Assembly: GCA_964344965.1 (NCBI GenBank)
Contig: CAYFPJ010000006.1
Location: 568-64,567 of the forward strand
Direction of reading: 5' to 3'
Length of the DNA: 64,000 bases
DNA from: an uncultured Gammaproteobacteria bacterium
GTDB lineage: Bacteria > Patescibacteriota > Patescibacteriia > Magasanikbacterales > UBA922
The position numbers and the translations under genes were made by a program. The notes below the pieces were generated by a model. It was not told the origin of the DNA. It did not search any database and saw only the letters and a list, made by a program, of their open reading frames with translations. Numbering within the stretch: position 1 is the first letter of the stretch; each line of letters opens with the position of its first letter. Positions 12,939 through 60,120 of this stretch are shown here, piece by piece.

Positions 12939-12942
12939 TTTA

Positions 12943-13084
12943 ATCTTTAAGCGGTTTTATTCCTCGATGCTTGCATCGAAAAAGTGAAAACTAACATTGG
13001 TTGAAATAAGATTTTCTGCCAATACCCCGCAGCTTGCTGCGGGGATGGCCCGATGAAGTCTTACTTAAACCAAATTTACTTTTA
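12943..13084. repeat. 142-bp element, left copy; perfectly identical in inverted orientation to 41728-41869
   Basis: Exact reverse-complement match over 142 bp. It contains the hairpin CCCCGCAGC-TTG-CTGCGGGG and lies between the stop of gene 13082..14083 and the start of fmt. Confidence 0.9.
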
Positions 13085-14083
13085 TTTTTTTGTAATTTTA
13101 TAACGAACTCCATCACGAATACTCTCTAGGAGTAGTTGAGCTTCTTTTTGGGTGATTTGAGATTTCTTTCTACCATTAGCTATGGCTTGAAGTGCTTTAT
13201 TGACACTATTGTAGTCTATGTGTGTTCCTTTGGGTAATTTTTTCAATAACTCTGTCTTTGAAAAGATGTTGTCAAAAAAAATTTGGATTCCATATTTTTC
13301 TTCTAATTTTTCTGCATTTTGCCACATATATACAGCAGTATTTTTGTACAATGATGCTATGTATAATTCTCCACTACTTAGTAACTTTCTTACCAAAGCA
13401 TCAAATATTTGATTGAATTCTGTTTTTTCATCATCTTCATTTATTTGATCGTACATGCTGGCATAATACAGCTCGCCATAAGTATCTAGTATCACATCAA
13501 ATTCCTGAAAATCCCTTAACTCAAGAATACTCTCTCTGATTTTGTCTACTTTTTTTTGCTTTCCTTTTCCCAATAATTTTTTTATAAGAGTTTCTCTATC
13601 TTTGCTGTAGGGTATTTCTTTCTTTTTTATATGATGGTCTGGAAGTGCTGCATGACTCCTGGTTACAGCTTGTCGTGTTTTTTCTACAATTTCTTCTCTG
13701 GTAAATTTAAGATTTGACAAACTTGTTCCAATTATTTTCACATCATCACCTAGCGCTTCTCTCACTTGCTCGTTATACAATCCCAGCCCAGCACCATTAT
13801 TCAATACTTTTAATTTTCTTTTTTCTCCTGCGGCACGCAACTTCTCTACTTTTTTTGGAAATACATCTCCTATGAATTCAACTCCATGAGAAGAGTTTAT
13901 GGTACCATTGTTAATTTCTATCAAATCATTGAATTTTCCTTCAAGTCTGGTTTGCATTAAAGTGGAATCTTCCAAATGTTTTTTTGCTCCTATTTTTTTT
14001 ACTTTGAGCACTCCAAATTCTGGGTCTTCTGGATCCAAAAATTTTTTTCCTCTATCTCTTATTTTCATATTTTTTATAAACAA
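13082..14083 (-). CDS. hypothetical protein with a possible Rossmann/SAM-MTase-like glycine motif
   Basis: 333 aa. KVLNNGAGLGLY...DVKIIGTS resembles methyltransferase motif I/II. The C-terminal half is helical and of unknown function. Confidence 0.35.
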   Translation of the reverse strand: MFIKNMKIRDRGKKFLDPEDPEFGVLKVKKIGAKKHLEDSTLMQTRLEGKFNDLIEINNGTINSSHGVEFIGDVFPKKVEKLRAAGEKRKLKVLNNGAGLGLYNEQVREALGDDVKIIGTSLSNLKFTREEIVEKTRQAVTRSHAALPDHHIKKKEIPYSKDRETLIKKLLGKGKQKKVDKIRESILELRDFQEFDVILDTYGELYYASMYDQINEDDEKTEFNQIFDALVRKLLSSGELYIASLYKNTAVYMWQNAEKLEEKYGIQIFFDNIFSKTELLKKLPKGTHIDYNSVNKALQAIANGRKKSQITQKEAQLLLESIRDGVRYKITKK

Positions 14084-19726: not shown

Positions 19727-19802
19727 AAGGATTAGAGTTCTCGGCGAAAGTCCAATAAGTGCCCACCCAGCTTTCGCCTGGAATCCTTTTTTGTATTATG
19801 AT
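19727..19802. repeat. Dispersed hairpin repeat, family GGATT...CGGCGAAAG...CTTTCGCC..GGAATCC-Tn (copy B)
   Basis: AAGGATTAGAGTTCTCGGCGAAAG...CAGCTTTCGCCTGGAATCCTTTTTT. It is closely related to 23636-23695. Confidence 0.6.
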
Positions 19803-23635: not shown

Positions 23636-23695
23636 AAGGATTCCCGGCGAAAGCCGGGTTAGTGCTCACCCGGCTTTCGCCGGGAATCCTTTTTC
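23636..23695 (+). terminator. Hairpin repeat family B/C acting as the metG terminator
   Basis: GGATTCCCGGCGAAAGCCGGG...CCCGGCTTTCGCCGGGAATCC is a perfect roughly 20-bp IR, followed by TTTTTC. Confidence 0.8.
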
Positions 23696-26296: not shown

Positions 26297-26390
26297 TTAG
26301 GAAATAGAACGCGGATTTAACGGATTGGACGGATCAAAACAGATCCATTCAAATCTATTTAATCCGTGTCATCTGTGTTCTATTTCCTAA
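26297..26390. repeat. MITE-like element, family 2, copy 1 (TIR TTAGGAAATAGAAC / GTTCTATTTCCTAA)
   Basis: 14-bp perfect terminal inverted repeats around an interior carrying ATCCATT...AATCCGTGT. A second copy is at 47832-47936. Confidence 0.7.
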
Positions 26391-37483: not shown

Positions 37484-37504
37484 GTCTCCGAAATTACATC
37501 AATA

Positions 37505-37541
37505 CCTCGTCCCGTACCGAGGTACGAGGTCGGGATTAAAA
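37505..37541. repeat. Dispersed hairpin repeat, family TCGTCCCG...TCGGGATTAAA (copy D)
   Basis: CCTCGTCCCGTACCGAGGTACGAGGTCGGGATTAAAA. Its reverse-complement relative is at 49237-49270. Confidence 0.6.
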
Positions 37542-41482: not shown

Positions 41483-41514
41483 ATTTGATATCAAATTAAA
41501 TTTTGATATCAAAT
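41483..41514. promoter_or_regulatory. Tandem palindromic operator-like repeats, TTTGATATCAAA twice, 10-40 bp upstream of the Pmp-like gene ATG (41521)
   Basis: ATTTGATATCAAAT (41483-41496) and TTTTGATATCAAAT (41501-41514). Each is a perfect 12-bp palindrome, with a centre-to-centre spacing of 18 bp. Confidence 0.45.
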
Positions 41515-41730
41515 TTTTTTATGTCTAAAATAAATTTTGCCTCTATAAAGATAAATTTTTTGGTAGTTGGTTTGGCTATTGTAGCCGTCTGCATGCCATC
41601 TGCCGCCCAGGCAGCTGATATTGTGGTTGGTGGTGATTGTACTCTGGTGGATGCCGTTTATGCGGCCAACCAGGATCAGGCAGTGGGTGAATGTAGTGCT
41701 GGAGAAGTTGGAGAGGACACTATTCAATAA
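41503..41730 (+). pseudogene. N-terminal fragment (signal peptide plus CSLREA-like domain) of a Pmp-type beta-helix surface-protein gene, terminated by the inserted 142-bp element
   Basis: MSKINFASIKINFLVVGLAIVAVCMPSAAQA signal peptide, then ADIVVGGDCTLVDAVYAANQDQAVGECSAGEVGEDTIQ. The stop TAA is the first triplet of the repeat. Confidence 0.6.
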
Positions 41731-41869
41731 AAGTAAATTTGGTTTAAGTAAGACTTCATCGGGCCATCCCCGCAGCAAGCTGCGGGGTATTGGCAGAAAA
41801 TCTTATTTCAACCAATGTTAGTTTTCACTTTTTCGATGCAAGCATCGAGGAATAAAACCGCTTAAAGAT
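41728..41869. repeat. 142-bp element, right copy (exact inverted duplicate of 12943-13084), inserted in the Pmp-like gene
   Basis: Perfect identity to the reverse complement of 12943-13084. Deleting exactly these 142 bp joins ...DTIQ to LTEDVVLTEVANF... in frame. Confidence 0.9.
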
Positions 41870-41881
41870 TTAACTGAAGAT

Positions 41882-43381
41882 GTGGTTTTAACTGAAGTGG
41901 CTAATTTTCTTTATGGCAATGGTGTGCCGATGATTGTTTCTCCGCTGGTGATTGATGGACATGGATTTGCTGTAGAGCGGGCTCAAGAAGCTGAACCTTT
42001 TGGTATTTTTTCTGTTCATGATACTGAAGCGGTTTTCAAAAATTTAGCAATTAAGAAAGGTGACTATGATCCTAGTTTGGGTAATAAAGTTGGAAATGCA
42101 TTGTTTATTGAGAATAGTTTAGTCATAGTGAAAAATGTGGATTTCATGAATAATTACTCATACTATGGCGGAGCAATATTTGTAGATGATTCTCGGGTAT
42201 CAATTCAGGATAGCTCCTTTGTCAAAAATAGTGCTACCACAGATGGTGGAGCCATTGCTCTACTCTTTAATTCTAGAATCACTGTTAGTAATACAGATTT
42301 TGTAGATAATAGTTCAGTTAGTAATGGTGGGGCTATATATAGTTTGACAGACAGCACTTCACTCCTGGTGGTTGATAGTACTTTTTCCGGTAATAAGAGT
42401 ATTGATGGTAGTGGTGGAGCGATTGATAGTGGATTTAATAACCATACCAAAATTATTAATAGTCACTTCACTAACAATAGTGCCAATAACGTCGGTGGAG
42501 CTATCTTAAGCAACTCTGAAAAAATGATTGTAAAAAATAGTAGCTTTGTTGCTAATAGCGCAGAAAATAGTGGTGGAGCGATTCAAAATAATAATGGTTT
42601 GATTATTAGCGAAAGTATTTTTCGCAACAACAACTCCTCTGATGGGGGAGCAATCGATAATTGGGGACATGTCAGTATAGTTAACTCTGGATTTTTGGCA
42701 AATAAGAGTGAGTTTGGCGGAGCTATTTGGAATCGCCACTCCTGGAATGGTAAAAAAGGTGAAATTCTGGTTGATAGTAGTTATTTTTATCTAAATTCTG
42801 CCCAGAAGTCAGGTGGTGCTATTTTTAATCTTTCTGATATCTCACTATTAAATACCAGTTTGGCTCATAATAGTGCTGGGAATTCAGGTGGCGGAATTCT
42901 AAGCGATGATAATGCTAATGTCGAAATTTCTTATGTTACTATAGCAAACAATGAAGCAAAAGATGGTAATGGTATTTTTGTGGACTCCAATATTTTTGTT
43001 AATCCTAATGAAGCTTCACCCGTAGGACCTGCTGTCCATATATCTAACAGTATTATTTTTGATGATTGTAGTGTTACTAATGATTTTTCATACTATAATA
43101 GCGTTAATAATCTGGGTACAGGTTTTTGTGCAGAAGTGGAATTGACCGGTCTTGATTCCGTCTTTCAGGATAATGGAGGAGATACTTTGACTTATGCACT
43201 ATTGGCTGACAGTAATGCCATAGATGCGGCAGATGAAAGTATAAGTGCTTGTCCTGCGTTTGACCAGCGTGGTGAGGCTAGAGATGATGGACAGTGTGAT
43301 ATAGGAGCGTATGAGTACAAGGCTAAGGGAAAAAGTAATTCAGACTACAGCTTGGGGAATATGTCTATCCAATGGCAGTAA
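41882..43381 (+). CDS. parallel beta-helix repeat protein (chlamydial Pmp-like GGAI/FxxN repeats); the body of the gene split at 41728-41869
   Basis: At least 9 GGAI(F/A/D/L/Q/W) repeats alternating with F(V)xN(S/N) motifs: GGAIFVDD, GGAIALLF, NGGAIYS, GGAIDSG, VGGAILS, SGGAIQN, DGGAIDN, FGGAIWN, SGGAIFN. The frame is open upstream of the GTG start through to 41870. Confidence 0.7.
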   Translation: MVLTEVANFLYGNGVPMIVSPLVIDGHGFAVERAQEAEPFGIFSVHDTEAVFKNLAIKKGDYDPSLGNKVGNALFIENSLVIVKNVDFMNNYSYYGGAIFVDDSRVSIQDSSFVKNSATTDGGAIALLFNSRITVSNTDFVDNSSVSNGGAIYSLTDSTSLLVVDSTFSGNKSIDGSGGAIDSGFNNHTKIINSHFTNNSANNVGGAILSNSEKMIVKNSSFVANSAENSGGAIQNNNGLIISESIFRNNNSSDGGAIDNWGHVSIVNSGFLANKSEFGGAIWNRHSWNGKKGEILVDSSYFYLNSAQKSGGAIFNLSDISLLNTSLAHNSAGNSGGGILSDDNANVEISYVTIANNEAKDGNGIFVDSNIFVNPNEASPVGPAVHISNSIIFDDCSVTNDFSYYNSVNNLGTGFCAEVELTGLDSVFQDNGGDTLTYALLADSNAIDAADESISACPAFDQRGEARDDGQCDIGAYEYKAKGKSNSDYSLGNMSIQWQ

Positions 43382-45915: not shown

Positions 45916-46335
45916 ATGAAAACAGTCCTCATTACTGGCACCTTCGATATTCTCCATCTTGGTCATATATACTTTTTCAAACAAGCTAGAGAATATGGTG
46001 ATAATCTTCACGTCATAATAGCAAGAGATAGTAATGTTGAGAAAATAAAAGGTCACAAACCCGTAAACACAGAGGATGAAAGATTAGATCTATTATCTTA
46101 TGTCAAATTAGTTGATAAAGTTATCCTCGGTGATGAAGACAATCCTTACAAATATATTGAAGAATTACAGCCAGACGTGATAGCACTCGGCTATGATCAA
46201 AATGTCTTTGTAGATAAGTTAGAAAATTTTTTAAAAGAGAAAAATATTGATGCTGAGATTGTCAGATTGAAACCACATCGAGAAGATAGGTTAAAGAGCG
46301 GGAGGATTAAGGATTATATTGAAAGTAATATCTAA
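45916..46335 (+). CDS. cytidylyltransferase-like nucleotidyltransferase (HxGH family; RibL/TagD-like)
   Basis: VLITGTFDILHLGHIYFF contains the (T/H)xGH nucleotide-binding motif. Its 139-aa size fits single-domain cytidylyl/adenylyl-transferases. Confidence 0.75.
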   Translation: MKTVLITGTFDILHLGHIYFFKQAREYGDNLHVIIARDSNVEKIKGHKPVNTEDERLDLLSYVKLVDKVILGDEDNPYKYIEELQPDVIALGYDQNVFVDKLENFLKEKNIDAEIVRLKPHREDRLKSGRIKDYIESNI

Positions 46336-46368
46336 CACAGATTACAGGGATTTTATTGGATTACACAG
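46335..46368. repeat. Left inverted repeat of the GxxExxY cassette, copy 1
   Basis: ACACAGATTACAGGGATTTTATTGGATTACACAG is the reverse complement of 46771-46799 with 28/29 identity. Confidence 0.75.
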
Positions 46369-46380
46369 AAAAAAAACAAT

Positions 46381-46773
46381 ATGCTAAAGGAGGTAGATTT
46401 AACAAGAGAAATAATTGGGATAGCAATGAAAGTACACGGAGAACTTGGTCCTGGATTTAAAGAAGTGATCTATCATCAAGCCATGTTGTCCGATTTGATT
46501 GAGAATGATTTTGATGTAGAAACAGAAGTGGAATTTGATGTAATTTACAAAAATAAAATAATTGGTATATTTAGAATTGATCTATTGGTAAATAAAAAAG
46601 TATTAATAGAGCTAAAGGCAATAAGCGGTGAGATACCTAAAATATTTAAATCACAAGTTGTCTCTTATTTGAAAGCAAGTAATTTGGAAGTTGGTCTACT
46701 GCTTAATTTTGGAAACCCAAGTCTTGAAATAAAACGATTTGGAAACTACAAAGACTATAAAAGATCAGTGTAA
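46381..46773 (+). CDS. GxxExxY family protein, copy 1
   Basis: 130 aa with GIAMKVHGELGPGFKEVIYHQA (G-x-x-E-x-x-Y) and ...IDLLVNKKVLIELKA. It is 126/130 identical to the copy at 59671..60063. Confidence 0.8.
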   Translation: MLKEVDLTREIIGIAMKVHGELGPGFKEVIYHQAMLSDLIENDFDVETEVEFDVIYKNKIIGIFRIDLLVNKKVLIELKAISGEIPKIFKSQVVSYLKASNLEVGLLLNFGNPSLEIKRFGNYKDYKRSV

Positions 46774-46799
46774 TCCAATAAAATCCTTGTAATCTGTGT
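46771..46799. repeat. Right inverted repeat of the GxxExxY cassette, copy 1; it abuts the ATG of the next gene
   Basis: TAATCCAATAAAATCCTTGTAATCTGTGT. Confidence 0.75.
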
Positions 46800-47831: not shown

Positions 47832-47936
47832 TTAGGAAATGGCACACAGATGACACAGATCTAATGGATTTACACGGATAAAATCTATCAAAATCCATTT
47901 AATCCGTGTGCCGAAGGCCTGTGTTCTATTTCCTAA
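47832..47936. repeat. MITE-like element, family 2, copy 2
   Basis: TTAGGAAAT...ATCCATTTAATCCGTGTG...GTTCTATTTCCTAA. It shares its TIRs and internal blocks with 26297-26390. Confidence 0.65.
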
Positions 47937-49204: not shown

Positions 49205-49236
49205 TTCAAGGTTCATAAATTTTTAAAAAAATAGTT

Positions 49237-49336
49237 TAATCCCTACCTCGTTCCTCGGTACGGGACGAGGGGTTGGTTTAATTCCCCGAGGCTCGCCTCG
49301 AAAAAAAGGTTCCAGGGCTTGCCCTGGGGTTCATAA
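49237..49336. repeat. Hairpin repeat copy E (reverse-complement orientation of family TCGTCCCG...TCGGGATTAAA) plus two further GC hairpins, acting as the serS terminator region
   Basis: TAATCCCTACCTCGTTCCTCGGTACGGGACGAGG is the reverse complement of the 37505-37541 type. It is followed by GAGGCTCGCCTC-GAAAAAAA and CCAGGGCTTGCCCTGG. Confidence 0.6.
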
Positions 49337-49603: not shown

Positions 49604-50326
49604 ATGGACCAAGAACCAAGAACCAAGAACCTAATAATCATACCCGGCTGGAACGGCACCAAACAAACCTGGCAAAAATTTGTAGAACTGGCAAGTGATA
49701 ATTTTGATGTCCAAGTCATCGAACTTCCTTGTTTTGGTAATGAACCTTGCCCTGATGCAGTCTGGGGAGTAGAAGAATATGCTGACTTCGTCAAATCTAA
49801 AATCATAAATCATAAATCTAAAATCATCTTATTGGGTCATAGTTTTGGTGGGGCAGTCGCTACCCACCTAGTAGCCAATAACCCAAGTATCTGTAACAAA
49901 TTAATCCTCAGTGGAGCTCCGATATTTAGAAGAAAAAAAACTATCAAAAAAGTAATATTTGGAATTATTGCCAAAGTCGGGAAATTCATCTTCTCTCTAC
50001 CAGGATTGAAAAAATTTGACAGAATAATGAAAAAAATATTATACAAAACAGCGCATTCGGACTATAATGGTACTAGTGGCATAAAACGAGAAATTTTCAA
50101 AAAAATAACAAGGCAAGATCAAAGTCATTTGCTATCGAAAATAAAAACCAAAACTTTGGTTATCCATGGGACAAAGGACACATATGTACCTCTGATCGAC
50201 GGCAAAAAAGTTGCAAGCATTATAGAAAACGCAGAGATGGAAATTGTAGAAAATGGCAAACACGGTCTCCATCTACAACAACCAAGCAACCTACTGAGTA
50301 TCATAAATAATTTTGTACAAAATTAA
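49604..50326 (+). CDS. alpha/beta hydrolase fold protein
   Basis: Nucleophile elbow GHSFGG and a C-terminal His (GKHGLH). The start of the gene contains the heptamer tandem CCAAGAA x3. Confidence 0.75.
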   Translation: MDQEPRTKNLIIIPGWNGTKQTWQKFVELASDNFDVQVIELPCFGNEPCPDAVWGVEEYADFVKSKIINHKSKIILLGHSFGGAVATHLVANNPSICNKLILSGAPIFRRKKTIKKVIFGIIAKVGKFIFSLPGLKKFDRIMKKILYKTAHSDYNGTSGIKREIFKKITRQDQSHLLSKIKTKTLVIHGTKDTYVPLIDGKKVASIIENAEMEIVENGKHGLHLQQPSNLLSIINNFVQN

Positions 50327-55256: not shown

Positions 55257-55585
55257 AGTGGAGGAAGGAGATAACAAAAGAACCTTACTTAATATAGTAT
55301 AAAGCGTCGCACAATGTATCTTATACGACATATTATACTTAGTGTGTTTATCTTAAGCACTTTCCACCTTTCAAATACTTTTTATTATTAAGCCTATTCC
55401 TACAGTTAGAAAGTTTTTTAATTCTTTCACTCGTTTAGTGTGTGTTTAGTCACATTAACTGGTACCTGCTGCTGAAGACCACATCTTCTTTATACTTAGC
55501 TTCGCCCCCCTATTCTTTCATTTTACGACACTACAGAATAACGTTTCAAAATTAGGAGGTATAGAGTATCGTCTTTTTGACTCTC

Positions 55586-55680
55586 TCATCCTGAGCGCAG
55601 CGAAGGATCTTTAGTAAGGAAAATATTCTCCAAAGGAAAATATTCTCCATAAGAAATATCCTTCGCTGCGCTCAGGATGA
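55586..55680. other. Large perfect stem-loop (22-23 bp stem, 49-nt loop with internal direct repeats) inside a 570-bp ORF-free region
   Basis: CATCCTGAGCGCAGCGAAGGAT (55587-55608) pairs with ATCCTTCGCTGCGCTCAGGATG (55658-55679). The loop carries GGAAAATATTCTCCA twice. Confidence 0.7.
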
Positions 55681-55828
55681 CATTATTAAAATATAAATAA
55701 AAAATCCAGAATTTTAAAAAATCACTGGACAATTTTTTGTCTAACCTATTTATCTATATCAAATTGAAAGACTTCTCCCCTTCCCCATTCACTCTCCCCT
55801 GCTAAATATATTGTGCGACACATCACAA

Positions 55829-59644: not shown

Positions 59645-59676
59645 ACACAGATTACAAGGATTTTATTGGATTACAC
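59645..59676. repeat. Downstream inverted repeat of the GxxExxY cassette, copy 2
   Basis: ACACAGATTACAAGGATTTTATTGGATTACAC is identical to the reverse complement of the copy-1 right flank 46771-46799. Confidence 0.75.
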
Positions 59677-60063
59677 TGATCTTTTATAGTCTTTATAATT
59701 TCCAAATCGTTTTATTTCAAGACTTGGGTTTCCAAAATTTAACAGTAGTCCGACTTCCAGATTGCTTGCTTTTAAGTAAGAGACTACTTGTGATTTAAAT
59801 ATTTTAGGCATTTCACCACTTATTGCTTTCAACTCTATTAATACTTTCTTATTTACCAATAAATCAATTCTAAATAAACCTATTATTTTGTTTTTGTAAA
59901 TTACATCAAATTCTACCTCTGTTTCTACATCTAAATCATCCTCAATCAAATCGGACAACATGGCTTGATGATAGATCACTTCTTTAAATCCAGGACCAAG
60001 TTCTCCGTGTATTTTCATTGCTATCCCAATTATTTCTCTTGTTAAATCTACCTCCTTTAGCAC
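59671..60063 (-). CDS. GxxExxY family protein, copy 2 (GTG start)
   Basis: 126/130 aa identical to 46381..46773. It sits in the opposite orientation with related flanks. Confidence 0.8.
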   Translation of the reverse strand: MLKEVDLTREIIGIAMKIHGELGPGFKEVIYHQAMLSDLIEDDLDVETEVEFDVIYKNKIIGLFRIDLLVNKKVLIELKAISGEMPKIFKSQVVSYLKASNLEVGLLLNFGNPSLEIKRFGNYKDYKRSV

Positions 60064-60120
60064 ACAAAATTTATTTTCTGTGTAATCTTTTAAAAATCCT
60101 TTAATCTGTGTAAGACTACA
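60064..60120. repeat. Upstream flank of GxxExxY cassette copy 2 (degenerate relative of the copy-1 left IR)
   Basis: The reverse complement contains ACACAGATTAAAGGATTTTTAAAAGATTACACAGAAAATAA, against ACACAGATTACAGGGATTTTATTGGATTACACAGAAAAAAA in copy 1. Confidence 0.55.

Follow-up and report, generated by a model that had tools for sequence, protein, structure and literature searches.

The beta-helix gene and its two halves

Within the window, the whole 64-kb stretch of DNA that was analysed, a gene for a beta-helix protein lies in two pieces on the plus strand. A 142-nt non-coding element separates them, and a second copy of this element lies elsewhere in the window. The gene and its upstream region comprise the following features.

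41484-41495 and 41502-41513, no strand: two perfect 12-bp palindromes TTTGATATCAAA, 18 bp apart, just 5' of the ATG
41521-41725, plus strand: 5' fragment of the split gene (signal peptide, N-terminal cap and first base of codon 69)
41728-41730, plus strand: TAA stop, element-derived, terminating the 5' fragment after residue 69
41868-43381, plus strand: 3' fragment, whose reading frame is offset by +1 from that of the 5' fragment, running from the last two bases of codon 69 through the beta-helix repeats to a choice-of-anchor Q domain

The 5' ORF starts at TTG 41503 or ATG 41521, ends with the TAA at 41728-41730 and translates as MSKINFASIKINFLVVGLAIVAVCMPSAAQA|ADIVVGGDCTLVDAVYAANQDQAVGECSAGEVGEDTIQ. 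It encodes a Sec-type signal peptide (residues 1-31, ending AQA|AD) and an N-terminal cap with the cysteine pair C40...C58, followed by GEDTI. The 3' ORF (41882-43381, stop codon at 43379-43381) encodes 499 aa with nine GGAI, one GGGI and eleven FxxN motifs, in agreement with the minimum of nine GGAI/FxxN repeats given in an earlier note on this DNA. GTG 41882 is the sole possible start of this ORF, and a product initiated there would have no signal peptide. The exact 499-aa product (P0001) is found on four public contigs.

The two ORFs are offset by +1. They are fused by a 142-nt deletion but not by deletions of 141, 143 or 144 nt, which bears out the earlier claim that a 142-bp element splits the gene and that its removal joins the ORFs in frame. 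The regions 41521-41730 and 41882-43381 are two halves of one gene, and neither half carries a further disabling mutation. A promoter and terminator scan gave no convincing promoter for the gene and no such signal in the element. The palindrome pair upstream of the ATG, also described earlier, accounts for the only two TTTGATATCAAA matches in the window, where composition predicts ~0.02 perfect copies; it may be an operator.

The reconstructed protein

Excision of exactly 142 nt yields ...GEDTI(Q/H)LTEDVVL..., a junction whose alignment with 15 homologues has no gap across the motif DTIxLxxD[IV]xL. D66, I68, L70 and L76 are invariant in this alignment, and the spacing of the motif is identical to that of the fused protein in 86 of 87 motifs from 119 homologues. 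An HMM built on the homologues' N-terminal caps scores the 142-nt excision at 74.8 bits, compared with 67.5, 68.9 and 62.1 bits for other in-frame excisions. The AlphaFold2 model places the junction within a beta-strand (residues 66-70, pLDDT ~90), and the cap is modelled with a pLDDT of ~90 as well. Collinearity across the junction, proposed earlier as a check on the single-gene reading, is what the gap-free alignment shows. The fused protein aligns with its homologues from end to end.

At ~572 aa, the reconstructed protein is close to the single secreted protein of roughly 570 aa predicted earlier. Behind the signal peptide and a disulfide-type cap at the N-terminus come ~10 PMP-type GGAI/FxxN rungs, and a choice-of-anchor Q domain forms the C-terminus. 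The repeats match Chlam_PMP (PF02415, E 2.6e-19) and POMP_repeat (TIGR01376, E 2.5e-16), and residues 501-553 match choice-of-anchor Q (NF041518) with 66.7 bits, above the cut-off of 25. Pfam and NCBIfam scans found no C-terminal autotransporter beta-barrel, and NF041518 is the sole C-terminal family match. The protein thus has in common with PMP-repeat proteins (chlamydial Pmps and choice-of-anchor Q proteins) the GGA[ILV]/FxxN repeats, the signal peptide and a modelled right-handed parallel beta-helix, but it differs from chlamydial Pmps in having no autotransporter family match. Together with the choice-of-anchor Q C-terminus, this makes it look unlike a chlamydial-type Pmp; the earlier assignment to that type stands for the repeats.

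The CSLREA label proposed earlier for the N-terminal part finds no support in the family models. Neither the N-terminal 104 aa nor the 69-aa fragment has a match even at E<=10 in NCBIfam, a collection that includes the curated TIGRFAM/NCBIfam model of the CSLREA domain. The likeness goes no further than the motif C-[ST]-L-x-D-A-[IV]-x-x-A-N, which the fused protein and its homologues have in common. The best homologues are 32-40% identical and metagenomic, some of them labelled Chloroflexi. Sequence and fold searches of the PDB return generic beta-helix matches only, with Foldseek matches ranging from the PfbA adhesin to tailspikes and lyases. The protein may be an adhesin or a carbohydrate-active enzyme, and an adhesin role would be a guess from the modelled fold.

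A repeated 142-nt element

The interrupting sequence and its second copy have the following features.

41726-41867, minus strand: 142-nt non-coding, presumably mobile element, a probable palindrome-associated transposable element (PATE); the transposon 'top' (tnpA-sense) strand is the window's minus strand
41729-41825, no strand: long imperfect hairpin of ~97 nt, whose tip (41768-41787) is an 8-bp stem with a CAAG loop, CCCCGCAG-CAAG-CTGCGGGG
41833-41848, no strand: second hairpin, TCGATG-CAAG-CATCGA, lying towards the transposon's left end (LE)
41868-41873, minus strand: transposon-adjacent motif (TAM) TTAAAT (plus strand ATTTAA), host sequence directly 5' of the left end
12945-13086, plus strand: second copy, whose top strand is the plus strand of the window, in the spacer separating the stop codon of a 333-aa ORF from the fmt ATG (12938-12936), with the TAM TTTAAT at 12939-12944

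The block common to both window copies spans 145 nt (41726-41870). Three candidate boundaries (41726-41867, 41728-41869 and 41729-41870) each delimit 142 nt and give equal protein length, with His or Gln as residue 69. The empty-site sequences reconstructed for the beta-helix gene under these boundaries are GAGGACACTATTCATTTAACTGAAGATG and GAGGACACTATTCAATTAACTGAAGATG, and the intact junction predicted from excision is ...ACTATTCA(T/A)TTAACTG.... A start at 41726 (AATAAAAG...), rather than at the TAA, is most likely. The earlier description of the TAA as the first triplet of the element is therefore right as to the origin of the stop codon and probably wrong as to where the element begins. The left end reads CTTTAAGCGG... 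and the right end (RE) ...ACTTTTATT. DNA conservation alone would allow the ATT at 41868-41870 to lie inside a 145-nt element, and it is the protein evidence only that favours 142 nt. Elements of 145 and 148 nt were considered and rejected: both keep the frame, but they delete residues of conserved spacing and score 7-13 bits lower in the HMM. For the second copy, the rebuilt empty site reads ...ITKN-TAA-A-ATG(fmt).

At least four copies exist and are 100% identical, two in the window and others on contigs L001 and L203. On the sister contigs L201-L203 (ENA), one copy truncates an EamA transporter gene, an insertion seen in three samples, and the end of another copy lies 17 nt upstream of this gene's start. 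Identical copies at unrelated sites, at least four in number, together with the family resemblance described below, suggest from sequence that the element is mobile. Other assemblies break within it, and independent assemblies share the right junction. The element has stop codons in all six frames and is too small to hold a transposase gene. Neither the window nor the element gave a relevant match in Rfam, and viral contigs, scanned twice with 24- and 25-mers specific to the element, contained none of them. GC-skew and gene-orientation profiles, examined for the replication orientation of the two opposite-strand copies, carry no interpretable origin signal.

A length of 142 nt, AT-rich ends and several copies are also typical of conventional MITEs, such as those of the DDE family IS630/Tc1 with its TA duplication. 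The element has no terminal inverted repeats, as its termini match at 4-10 of 20 positions in inverted register under any boundary, and whichever 142-nt boundary is chosen, its flanks share no direct repeat of at least 2 nt, so that a target duplication is absent. A TA or AA duplication would moreover need the removal of 143 or 144 nt, which breaks the frame. A DDE-type MITE, or an unrelated repeat, is accordingly very improbable.

Hairpins and flanking motif

The element folds strongly, with z-scores of -4.0 as DNA and -4.8 as RNA, and its hairpin core has a chance expectation of 0 in 100 shuffles. The exact 20-mer of the hairpin tip is found in more than 118 other genomes. This hairpin, an 8-bp GC stem with a CAAG/CTTG loop, is constant letter for letter over many bacterial and archaeal phyla. 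The second hairpin varies among relatives, with compensatory stem substitutions and a conserved CAAG loop: at least five of the six pairs form in 21 of 32 unique variants, and the mean number of pairs is 4.41, compared with 3.37 for shuffled partners. Next to it comes GGAATAAAACC-GCTTAAAG, which corresponds to the GGGGAATTAGACCC-GAAGAG of related elements. Both hairpins are in direct orientation with the same loop orientation, and the ends of the element are asymmetric. The left-end region matches that of 97-nt relatives from soil position by position. The distance from the conserved hairpin to the right end is 42 nt here and 8-10 nt in the soil relatives. With this right-end spacing, the element may no longer be a good TnpA substrate.

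The strong structure as RNA and the stop codon right at the junction would also suit an RNA-level intron or a translational bypass that leaves the gene functional; phage T4 gene 60 likewise has a stop codon at its bypass junction. The element matches no Rfam family and, at 142 nt, is too short to be a group I or II intron; the matching take-off and landing codons of a bypass are absent from the sequence. Identical copies also sit in intergenic spacers. An assembly artefact is contradicted by the same right junction in independent assemblies, and the collinearity of the fused protein excludes two unrelated genes. The chance that the gene is not inactivated for any of these reasons appears negligible.

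All three known right junctions of the element read ATT(T/A)AA, while the left flanks are variable. The 40 soil insertions of the 97-nt relative show the same arrangement, ATT-N-AA, with A at the last two positions in 40/40 and 37/40, and the one-sided pattern is repeated in ten diverse genomes. Read on the transposon top strand, the motif TTNAAT thus adjoins both the 142-nt element and the 40 insertions of its relative. It resembles the IS605 target TTTAA(C). Models with a target duplication of NAA, AA or TA were tried on the 40 related insertions and the beta-helix gene and were rejected: the variable base differs between flanks, and 143- and 144-nt excisions break the frame.

Relationship to IS200-like transposons

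Elements of the IS200/IS605 class move as single-stranded DNA. Their Y1 (HUH) transposase TnpA recognises a hairpin close to each end and inserts the element immediately 3' of a short motif, with no gain or loss of host bases. In 12 loci the exact 20-mer hairpin is found at a distance of 14-87 nt from an IS200-type Y1 tnpA, and in L163 and L170 it is present on both sides of the gene. The L036 ORF matches PF01797 (E 1.6e-34). The related proteins have the IS200 layout, with ~140-150 aa, YHIVF...KYR, HxH and a C-terminal Y. A tblastn search found no tnpA within the 64-kb window.

The likeness to the IS200/IS605 family (IS608, IS605, ISDra2, IS200) extends to the relatives' Y1 HUH transposase gene between near-identical subterminal hairpins and to seamless insertion on the 3' side of a short, strand-specific, AT-rich motif. 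The copy described here differs in having no transposase gene, and its flanking motif has six bases with one position free. PATEs, first described in Haloquadratum walsbyi, are defined as non-coding elements with near-terminal palindromes that have neither inverted terminal repeats nor a target duplication (PMC3119063). The element corresponds to this definition: it is non-coding or too short to code, has no inverted repeats, carries near-terminal palindromes and causes no duplication. It also combines Y1-linked hairpins with a one-sided motif. With known PATEs it has in common a size in the range of ~50-200 nt, a homogeneous multi-copy family, IS200/IS605-related palindromes and a presumed mobilisation in trans (PMC3119063, PMC10055086). 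It differs from them in its probable origin, an IS200-like relative with tnpA only and not an element with tnpB (IS1341), in the lengthening of one hairpin to a ~97-nt stem located 42 nt from the terminus, and in its low-GC, uncultivated host.

REP and REPIN sequences are short GC-rich hairpins that occur genome-wide and are tied to a Y1-type gene that is itself hairpin-flanked. Many REP sequences are GC-rich hairpins with a GCAAGC centre, as are the hairpins of the element, and the tnpA genes found here are small and directly hairpin-flanked, like RAYT genes. These features could also be those of an element that a domesticated RAYT (TnpA-REP) maintains and that is no true derivative of IS200/IS605. 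REPINs, however, are extragenic inverted doublets, whereas this element has hairpins in direct orientation, asymmetric ends and a motif on one side; two of its four copies interrupt ORFs, and the related proteins have the IS200 layout. We give the REP/REPIN reading only a slim chance. It is instead highly probable, as one joint reading, that the element is a PATE whose source within the IS200/IS605 superfamily was an IS200-like member with tnpA only, and that the gene it splits would, if intact, encode a secreted right-handed beta-helix protein of ~572 aa.

Proposed insertion and its consequence

The flanks are consistent with a TnpA that would have placed the element directly 3' of TTAAAT (minus strand, 41873-41868), with no host base duplicated or deleted. 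Once inserted, the element would supply a TAA directly after codon 69 and shift the remaining 503 codons to the +1 frame. A restart at GTG 41882, the sole option, would produce a protein with neither signal peptide nor cap. The early stop, the frameshift and a restart without signal peptide would together turn the gene off. We infer that the element was mobilised within this genome by a TnpA and that the gene has lost its product. Insertional inactivation, the interpretation given in the earlier note, is supported as the right reading by the repeated nature of the element, the collinear junction, the HMM scores and the AlphaFold2 model.

Scarless excision, and the mobilisation in trans of PATE-like elements, is known from Geobacillus stearothermophilus, and excision that restores an interrupted lacZ without a scar has been shown experimentally for this class of transposon (PMC10055086). 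It follows from scarless excision in the class that TnpA acting in trans could restore the beta-helix gene exactly. Restoration of the frame on removal is implied by any seamless insertion and is no sign of design.

The earlier note also raised an ON/OFF switch. Scarless TnpA excision and re-insertion could toggle the surface protein and the EamA transporter in the manner of phase variation. In favour of such a reversible switch are the otherwise undamaged gene halves with a fused protein alignable end to end, the 100% identity of the copies, which points to recent activity, and the scarless restoration of lacZ documented for the class (PMC10055086). A very recent insertion explains the undamaged halves equally well. 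The tnpA gene is absent from the 64-kb window, the right-end geometry is atypical, the truncated 499-aa product is what all four contigs with the 3' half encode, and three samples carry the EamA insertion. In 5.8 billion protein clusters, the search for an uninterrupted beta-helix allele returned only the truncated 499-aa product, the next match being 32-36% identical, and a search for an intact EamA allele returned the truncated product only. We regard the switch as unlikely. Slightly less likely still is the wider scenario in which a burst of one PATE, in this poorly sampled bacterium, hit at least two envelope genes (beta-helix and EamA), both otherwise intact, and in which these insertions could serve as transposase-dependent reversible switches. 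If true, this would be phase variation of a kind that has not so far been reported for natural IS200/IS605-type mini-elements.

Implications

Disruption of a gene by a mobile element is ordinary, and this case is clean and well documented. It provides a natural example of the seamless insertion of an IS200/IS605-type mini-element in which the homologous proteins determine the exact length of the insert, 142 nt. Protein homology and at least 40 related insertions together resolve the boundaries of the element and the TTNAAT motif. For annotation, 41521-43381 is one disrupted gene and not a 499-aa protein gene next to a separate small ORF. Metagenome assemblies of the host organism break at the element, and its letter-conserved hairpin offers a search key for this lineage of transposons. 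Should revertant reads occur at low frequency, the locus would be a natural test case for scarless excision as a gene switch.

A beta-helix protein gene in two halves

The earlier note described a beta-helix surface-protein gene split in frame by a 142-bp element. Re-reading of the sequence bears out its account of the ORFs, the palindromes and the repeated insert, and the reading as an insertional interruption is essentially correct: the finding is real, and one gene is split by a repeated mobile element. The parts of the gene are as follows.

41484-41495 and 41502-41513: pair of perfect TTTGATATCAAA palindromes with GATATC in each, spaced 18 bp, immediately before the start of the interrupted gene
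41503 (TTG; ATG 41521 is more plausible) to TAA 41728-41730, plus strand: 5' ORF, signal peptide, then ...GGDCTLVDAVYAANQDQAVGECSAGEVGEDTIQ
41882 (GTG) to 43381, plus strand: 3' ORF, 499 aa

The 5' ORF product opens with a Sec-type signal peptide (MSKINFASIKINFLVVGLAIVAVCMPSAAQA/AD). The palindromes are real and unique in the window, where about 0.02 perfect copies are expected, and the pair could be an operator. The 3' ORF contains 9 GGAI, one GGGI and 11 FxxN motifs and matches Chlam_PMP (PF02415, E 2.6e-19) and POMP_repeat (TIGR01376, E 2.5e-16); its C-terminus scores 66.7 bits against choice-of-anchor Q (NF041518, cut-off 25). The protein is a PMP-repeat beta-helix protein that ends in a choice-of-anchor Q domain. 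It shares PMP repeats with chlamydial-type Pmp proteins but does not look like a chlamydial-type autotransporter, because no autotransporter family matched it in either family scan. The proposed 'CSLREA' label is not supported, as the N-terminal part matched no NCBIfam model even at E<=10, and the adhesin role is a guess.

The 3' ORF lies in frame +1 relative to the 5' ORF. Deleting 142 nt fuses the two, as had been claimed, and deleting 141, 143 or 144 nt does not. A search of 5.8 billion protein clusters with the conceptual fusion protein found the exact 499-aa fragment on four contigs. No other match exceeds about 40% identity, and an intact allele was not found among these clusters. Over its whole length, signal peptide through C-terminus, the fusion aligns with 15 homologues of comparable length, and the collinearity across the junction on which the earlier note had staked its reading holds without a gap: the consensus is GADTIxLTxDITL, the fusion reads GEDTIQ/LTEDVVL, and D66, I68, L70 and L76 are invariant columns. 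Across 119 homologues, exactly one residue separates D-x-I from the next hydrophobic position of the cap motif in 86 of 87 occurrences, and zero residues in none. An HMM built from the 15 homologous N-terminal caps scored the 142-nt excision at 74.8 bits and the other in-frame excisions lower (139 nt, 68.9; two 145-nt options, 67.5 and 65.0; 148 nt, 62.1). AlphaFold2, run on the homologue alignment, returned a mean pLDDT of 76.8 and a pTM of 0.77, with residues 31-80 at pLDDT 84-92, the junction within beta-strand 66-70 and the junction-bearing cap packed on a long beta-helix. Foldseek matches were confined to generic proteins with a right-handed beta-helix, among them the PfbA adhesin, phage tailspikes and PL6 lyases. 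From the gap-free alignment, the motif spacing, the HMM scores and the predicted placement of the junction, we conclude that the two ORFs are halves of one gene.

Structure, boundaries and copies of the element

The element has stop codons in all six frames, matches no known RNA family, contains no promoter-like or terminator-like sites and lacks terminal inverted repeats as well as a flanking direct repeat of 2 nt or more. As DNA it folds with a z-score of -4.0, and it carries two hairpins.

41729-41825: long imperfect hairpin, tip CCCCGCAG-CAAG-CTGCGGGG
41833-41848: short hairpin, TCGATG-CAAG-CATCGA

A stretch of 145 nt recurs with 100% identity on the opposite strand at about 12.9-13.1 kb. 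The protein collection was also queried with a peptide translated from the element, and this turned up an EamA-family ORF truncated by a third copy, on three ENA contigs (L201-L203) of PRJEB17505, the same project as the window's gene. The further copies are:

12945-13086: copy A, flanked by the stop codon of a 333-aa ORF and the fmt start codon ATG
L201-L203, e.g. L203:483-607: third copy, truncates an EamA-family transporter gene after ...GTIFQKKY
L201-L203, contig start inside it, e.g. L203:1-120: fourth copy, with its end 17 nt before the EamA start codon

DNA conservation alone is compatible with a 145-nt element (41726-41870), and the protein evidence requires 142 nt. Only one decomposition satisfies both: the element spans 41726-41867 (AATAAAAGT...GCTTAAAG), and minus-strand positions 41873-41868 form the transposon-adjacent motif (TAM) TTAAAT. 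On this division the gene before insertion would have been ...GAC ACT ATT CAT TTA ACT... (DTIHL), and several homologues have His at this variable position. The start is more likely 41726 (DTIHL) than 41728, that of the boundaries first proposed (41728-41869, DTIQL); the length of 142 nt and the seamless insertion stand under either choice. By the same boundary rule, the empty site of copy A is ...ITKN-TAA-A-ATG(fmt), as is normal for two closely packed genes.

Wherever the copies can be compared, they are 100% identical. The EamA contigs are 607-609 nt long, the 607-nt contig has the repeat at both ends, and public assemblies break within the element. The element is probably a recently active repeat and not a gene-specific signal. 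The TTNAAT-bearing strand is antisense to the neighbouring host genes in all four known copies, a number too small for significance; this might reflect the known replication-strand bias of IS200/IS605-type transposons, or selection.

Relatives of the element and a transposase link

The 20-nt hairpin was scanned against one genome per species and found at at least 118 loci in many bacterial and archaeal phyla, with hosts (L002-L119) ranging from Nitrospira, Desulfobacterota and Lachnospiraceae to Methanosarcinales and Woesearchaeota. Among the matches listed, the match lengthens to 24-28 nt in most loci. Family members have a pair of hairpins in direct orientation, whose stems covary and whose CAAG loop is conserved. 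More than 118 genomes contain the exact hairpin CCCCGCAGCAAGCTGCGGGG, mostly in the context AATGAAnnT-hairpin-TATC; for a transposon end, such strict conservation is unusual. The second hairpin keeps at least five of six pairs through compensatory changes in 21 of 32 unique variants (mean 4.41 pairs, versus 3.37 with shuffled partners; maximum 3.94 in 500 shuffles). The family right end is GGGGAAT-N-ACCC-GNAGAGATT, which the element's CGAGGAATAAAACCGCTTAAAGATT matches position by position.

In 12 of the loci listed, an IS200-type transposase gene is found 14-87 nt away from the exact hairpin. The hairpin occurs on both sides of that gene in loci L163 and L170, and the protein of locus L036 matches Y1_Tnp (PF01797) at E 1.6e-34. 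A metagenome scan with the hairpin plus flank returned 81 loci. Among them, a 97-nt mini-element with two hairpins has inserted independently 40 times, and several of its full-length parents carry the Y1 transposase gene tnpA 20 nt from the same hairpin. One flank of the 40 insertions is random and the other is ATT-N-AA, with N free and the last two positions A in 40/40 and 37/40. The variable bases of the two sides differ, so these insertions show no target duplication. On the tnpA-sense strand, the TAM 5'-TTNAAT precedes the left end and the right end finishes ...TTTTATT, which is the canonical IS200/IS605 layout. The 142-nt element conforms to it: its three known right junctions are ATTTAA, ATTAAA and ATTTAA, and its three known left flanks differ (...TATTC, ...AAAAA, ...AATAT) directly before AATAAAAG. 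The same flank pattern occurs in ten diverse genomes.

Other repeats in the window

49236-49336, minus strand: a second mini-element, distinct but from the same hairpin superfamily, ..TATGAACC-CCAGGGCAAGCCCTGG-...-CGAGGCGAGCCTCGGGGAATTAAACC...GGGATT/AAAC
46331-46376 / 60070-60115 and 26343-26390 / 47832-47879: further paired repeats, noted together with a 437-nt duplication

The second mini-element has a flank of the same kind (TTTAAT on the other strand) and lies between a seryl-tRNA-synthetase-like ORF and ORF 49604-50326; a 49-nt piece recurs at 37492-37540. A 437-nt inverted duplication (46363-46799 and 59645-60081, 92% identical) is possibly a further mobile cassette. Both arms contain a 130-aa ORF with a PDDEXK_3 domain, and ACACAGAT-rich short repeats border each of them. 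Two 54-nt hairpin elements (19738-19791 and 23641-23694, 83% identical), located downstream of genes, read GGATTCCCGGCGAAAGCCGGG...CCCGGCTTTCGCCGGGAATCC followed by a T-run and look like terminators. An intergenic, near-perfect palindrome of about 117 nt (55575-55691) has 57-nt arms, 81% complementary, and a 3-nt spacer.

Classification and effect on the gene

Palindrome-associated transposable elements (PATEs) are defined by no inverted terminal repeats, near-terminal palindromes related to the IS605 type, no target duplication and no coding capacity (PMC3119063). The 142-nt element has every one of these features and is a PATE of the IS200/IS605 superfamily. A REPIN was ruled out by the intragenic position of two of the four copies, the direct orientation of the hairpins and the asymmetry of the ends; a DDE-type MITE was ruled out by the lack of inverted repeats and duplication.

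In IS200/IS605, the Y1 HUH transposase TnpA works on single-stranded DNA, recognises subterminal hairpins and excises a circle; the donor is re-sealed without a scar, and integration occurs 3' of the TAM without duplication (PMC10055086). We infer that a TnpA mobilised the element in this genome. Its present-day mobility is uncertain, because the 64-kb window contains no tnpA and 42 nt separate the conserved hairpin from the right end, versus 8-10 nt in the 97-nt relatives. The insertion site would be the TTAAAT on the antisense strand of the region that encodes the cap. Translation would stop at the element's TAA after residue 69, with the codons beyond frame-shifted, and a protein made from the first usable start, GTG 41882, would lack the signal peptide and the cap strands. 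The beta-helix protein has probably been lost.

Maintenance of the insertion as a reversible switch of the gene is improbable. Scarless excision has restored an interrupted lacZ in the IS200/IS605 class (PMC10055086), and here neither gene half shows other damage and the copies are identical, but a very recent insertion explains the latter equally well. On all public contigs with the 3' half the called product is the truncated one of 499 aa, as the interrupted form predicts; three samples contain the EamA insertion, and the transposase was not found in the window.

Disruption of a gene by a mini-transposon is ordinary, and here the element can be named as a PATE and its mechanism stated. Modest added interest lies in the base-exact reconstruction, the flanking motif drawn from more than 40 insertions and a hairpin conserved letter-perfect across both prokaryotic domains.
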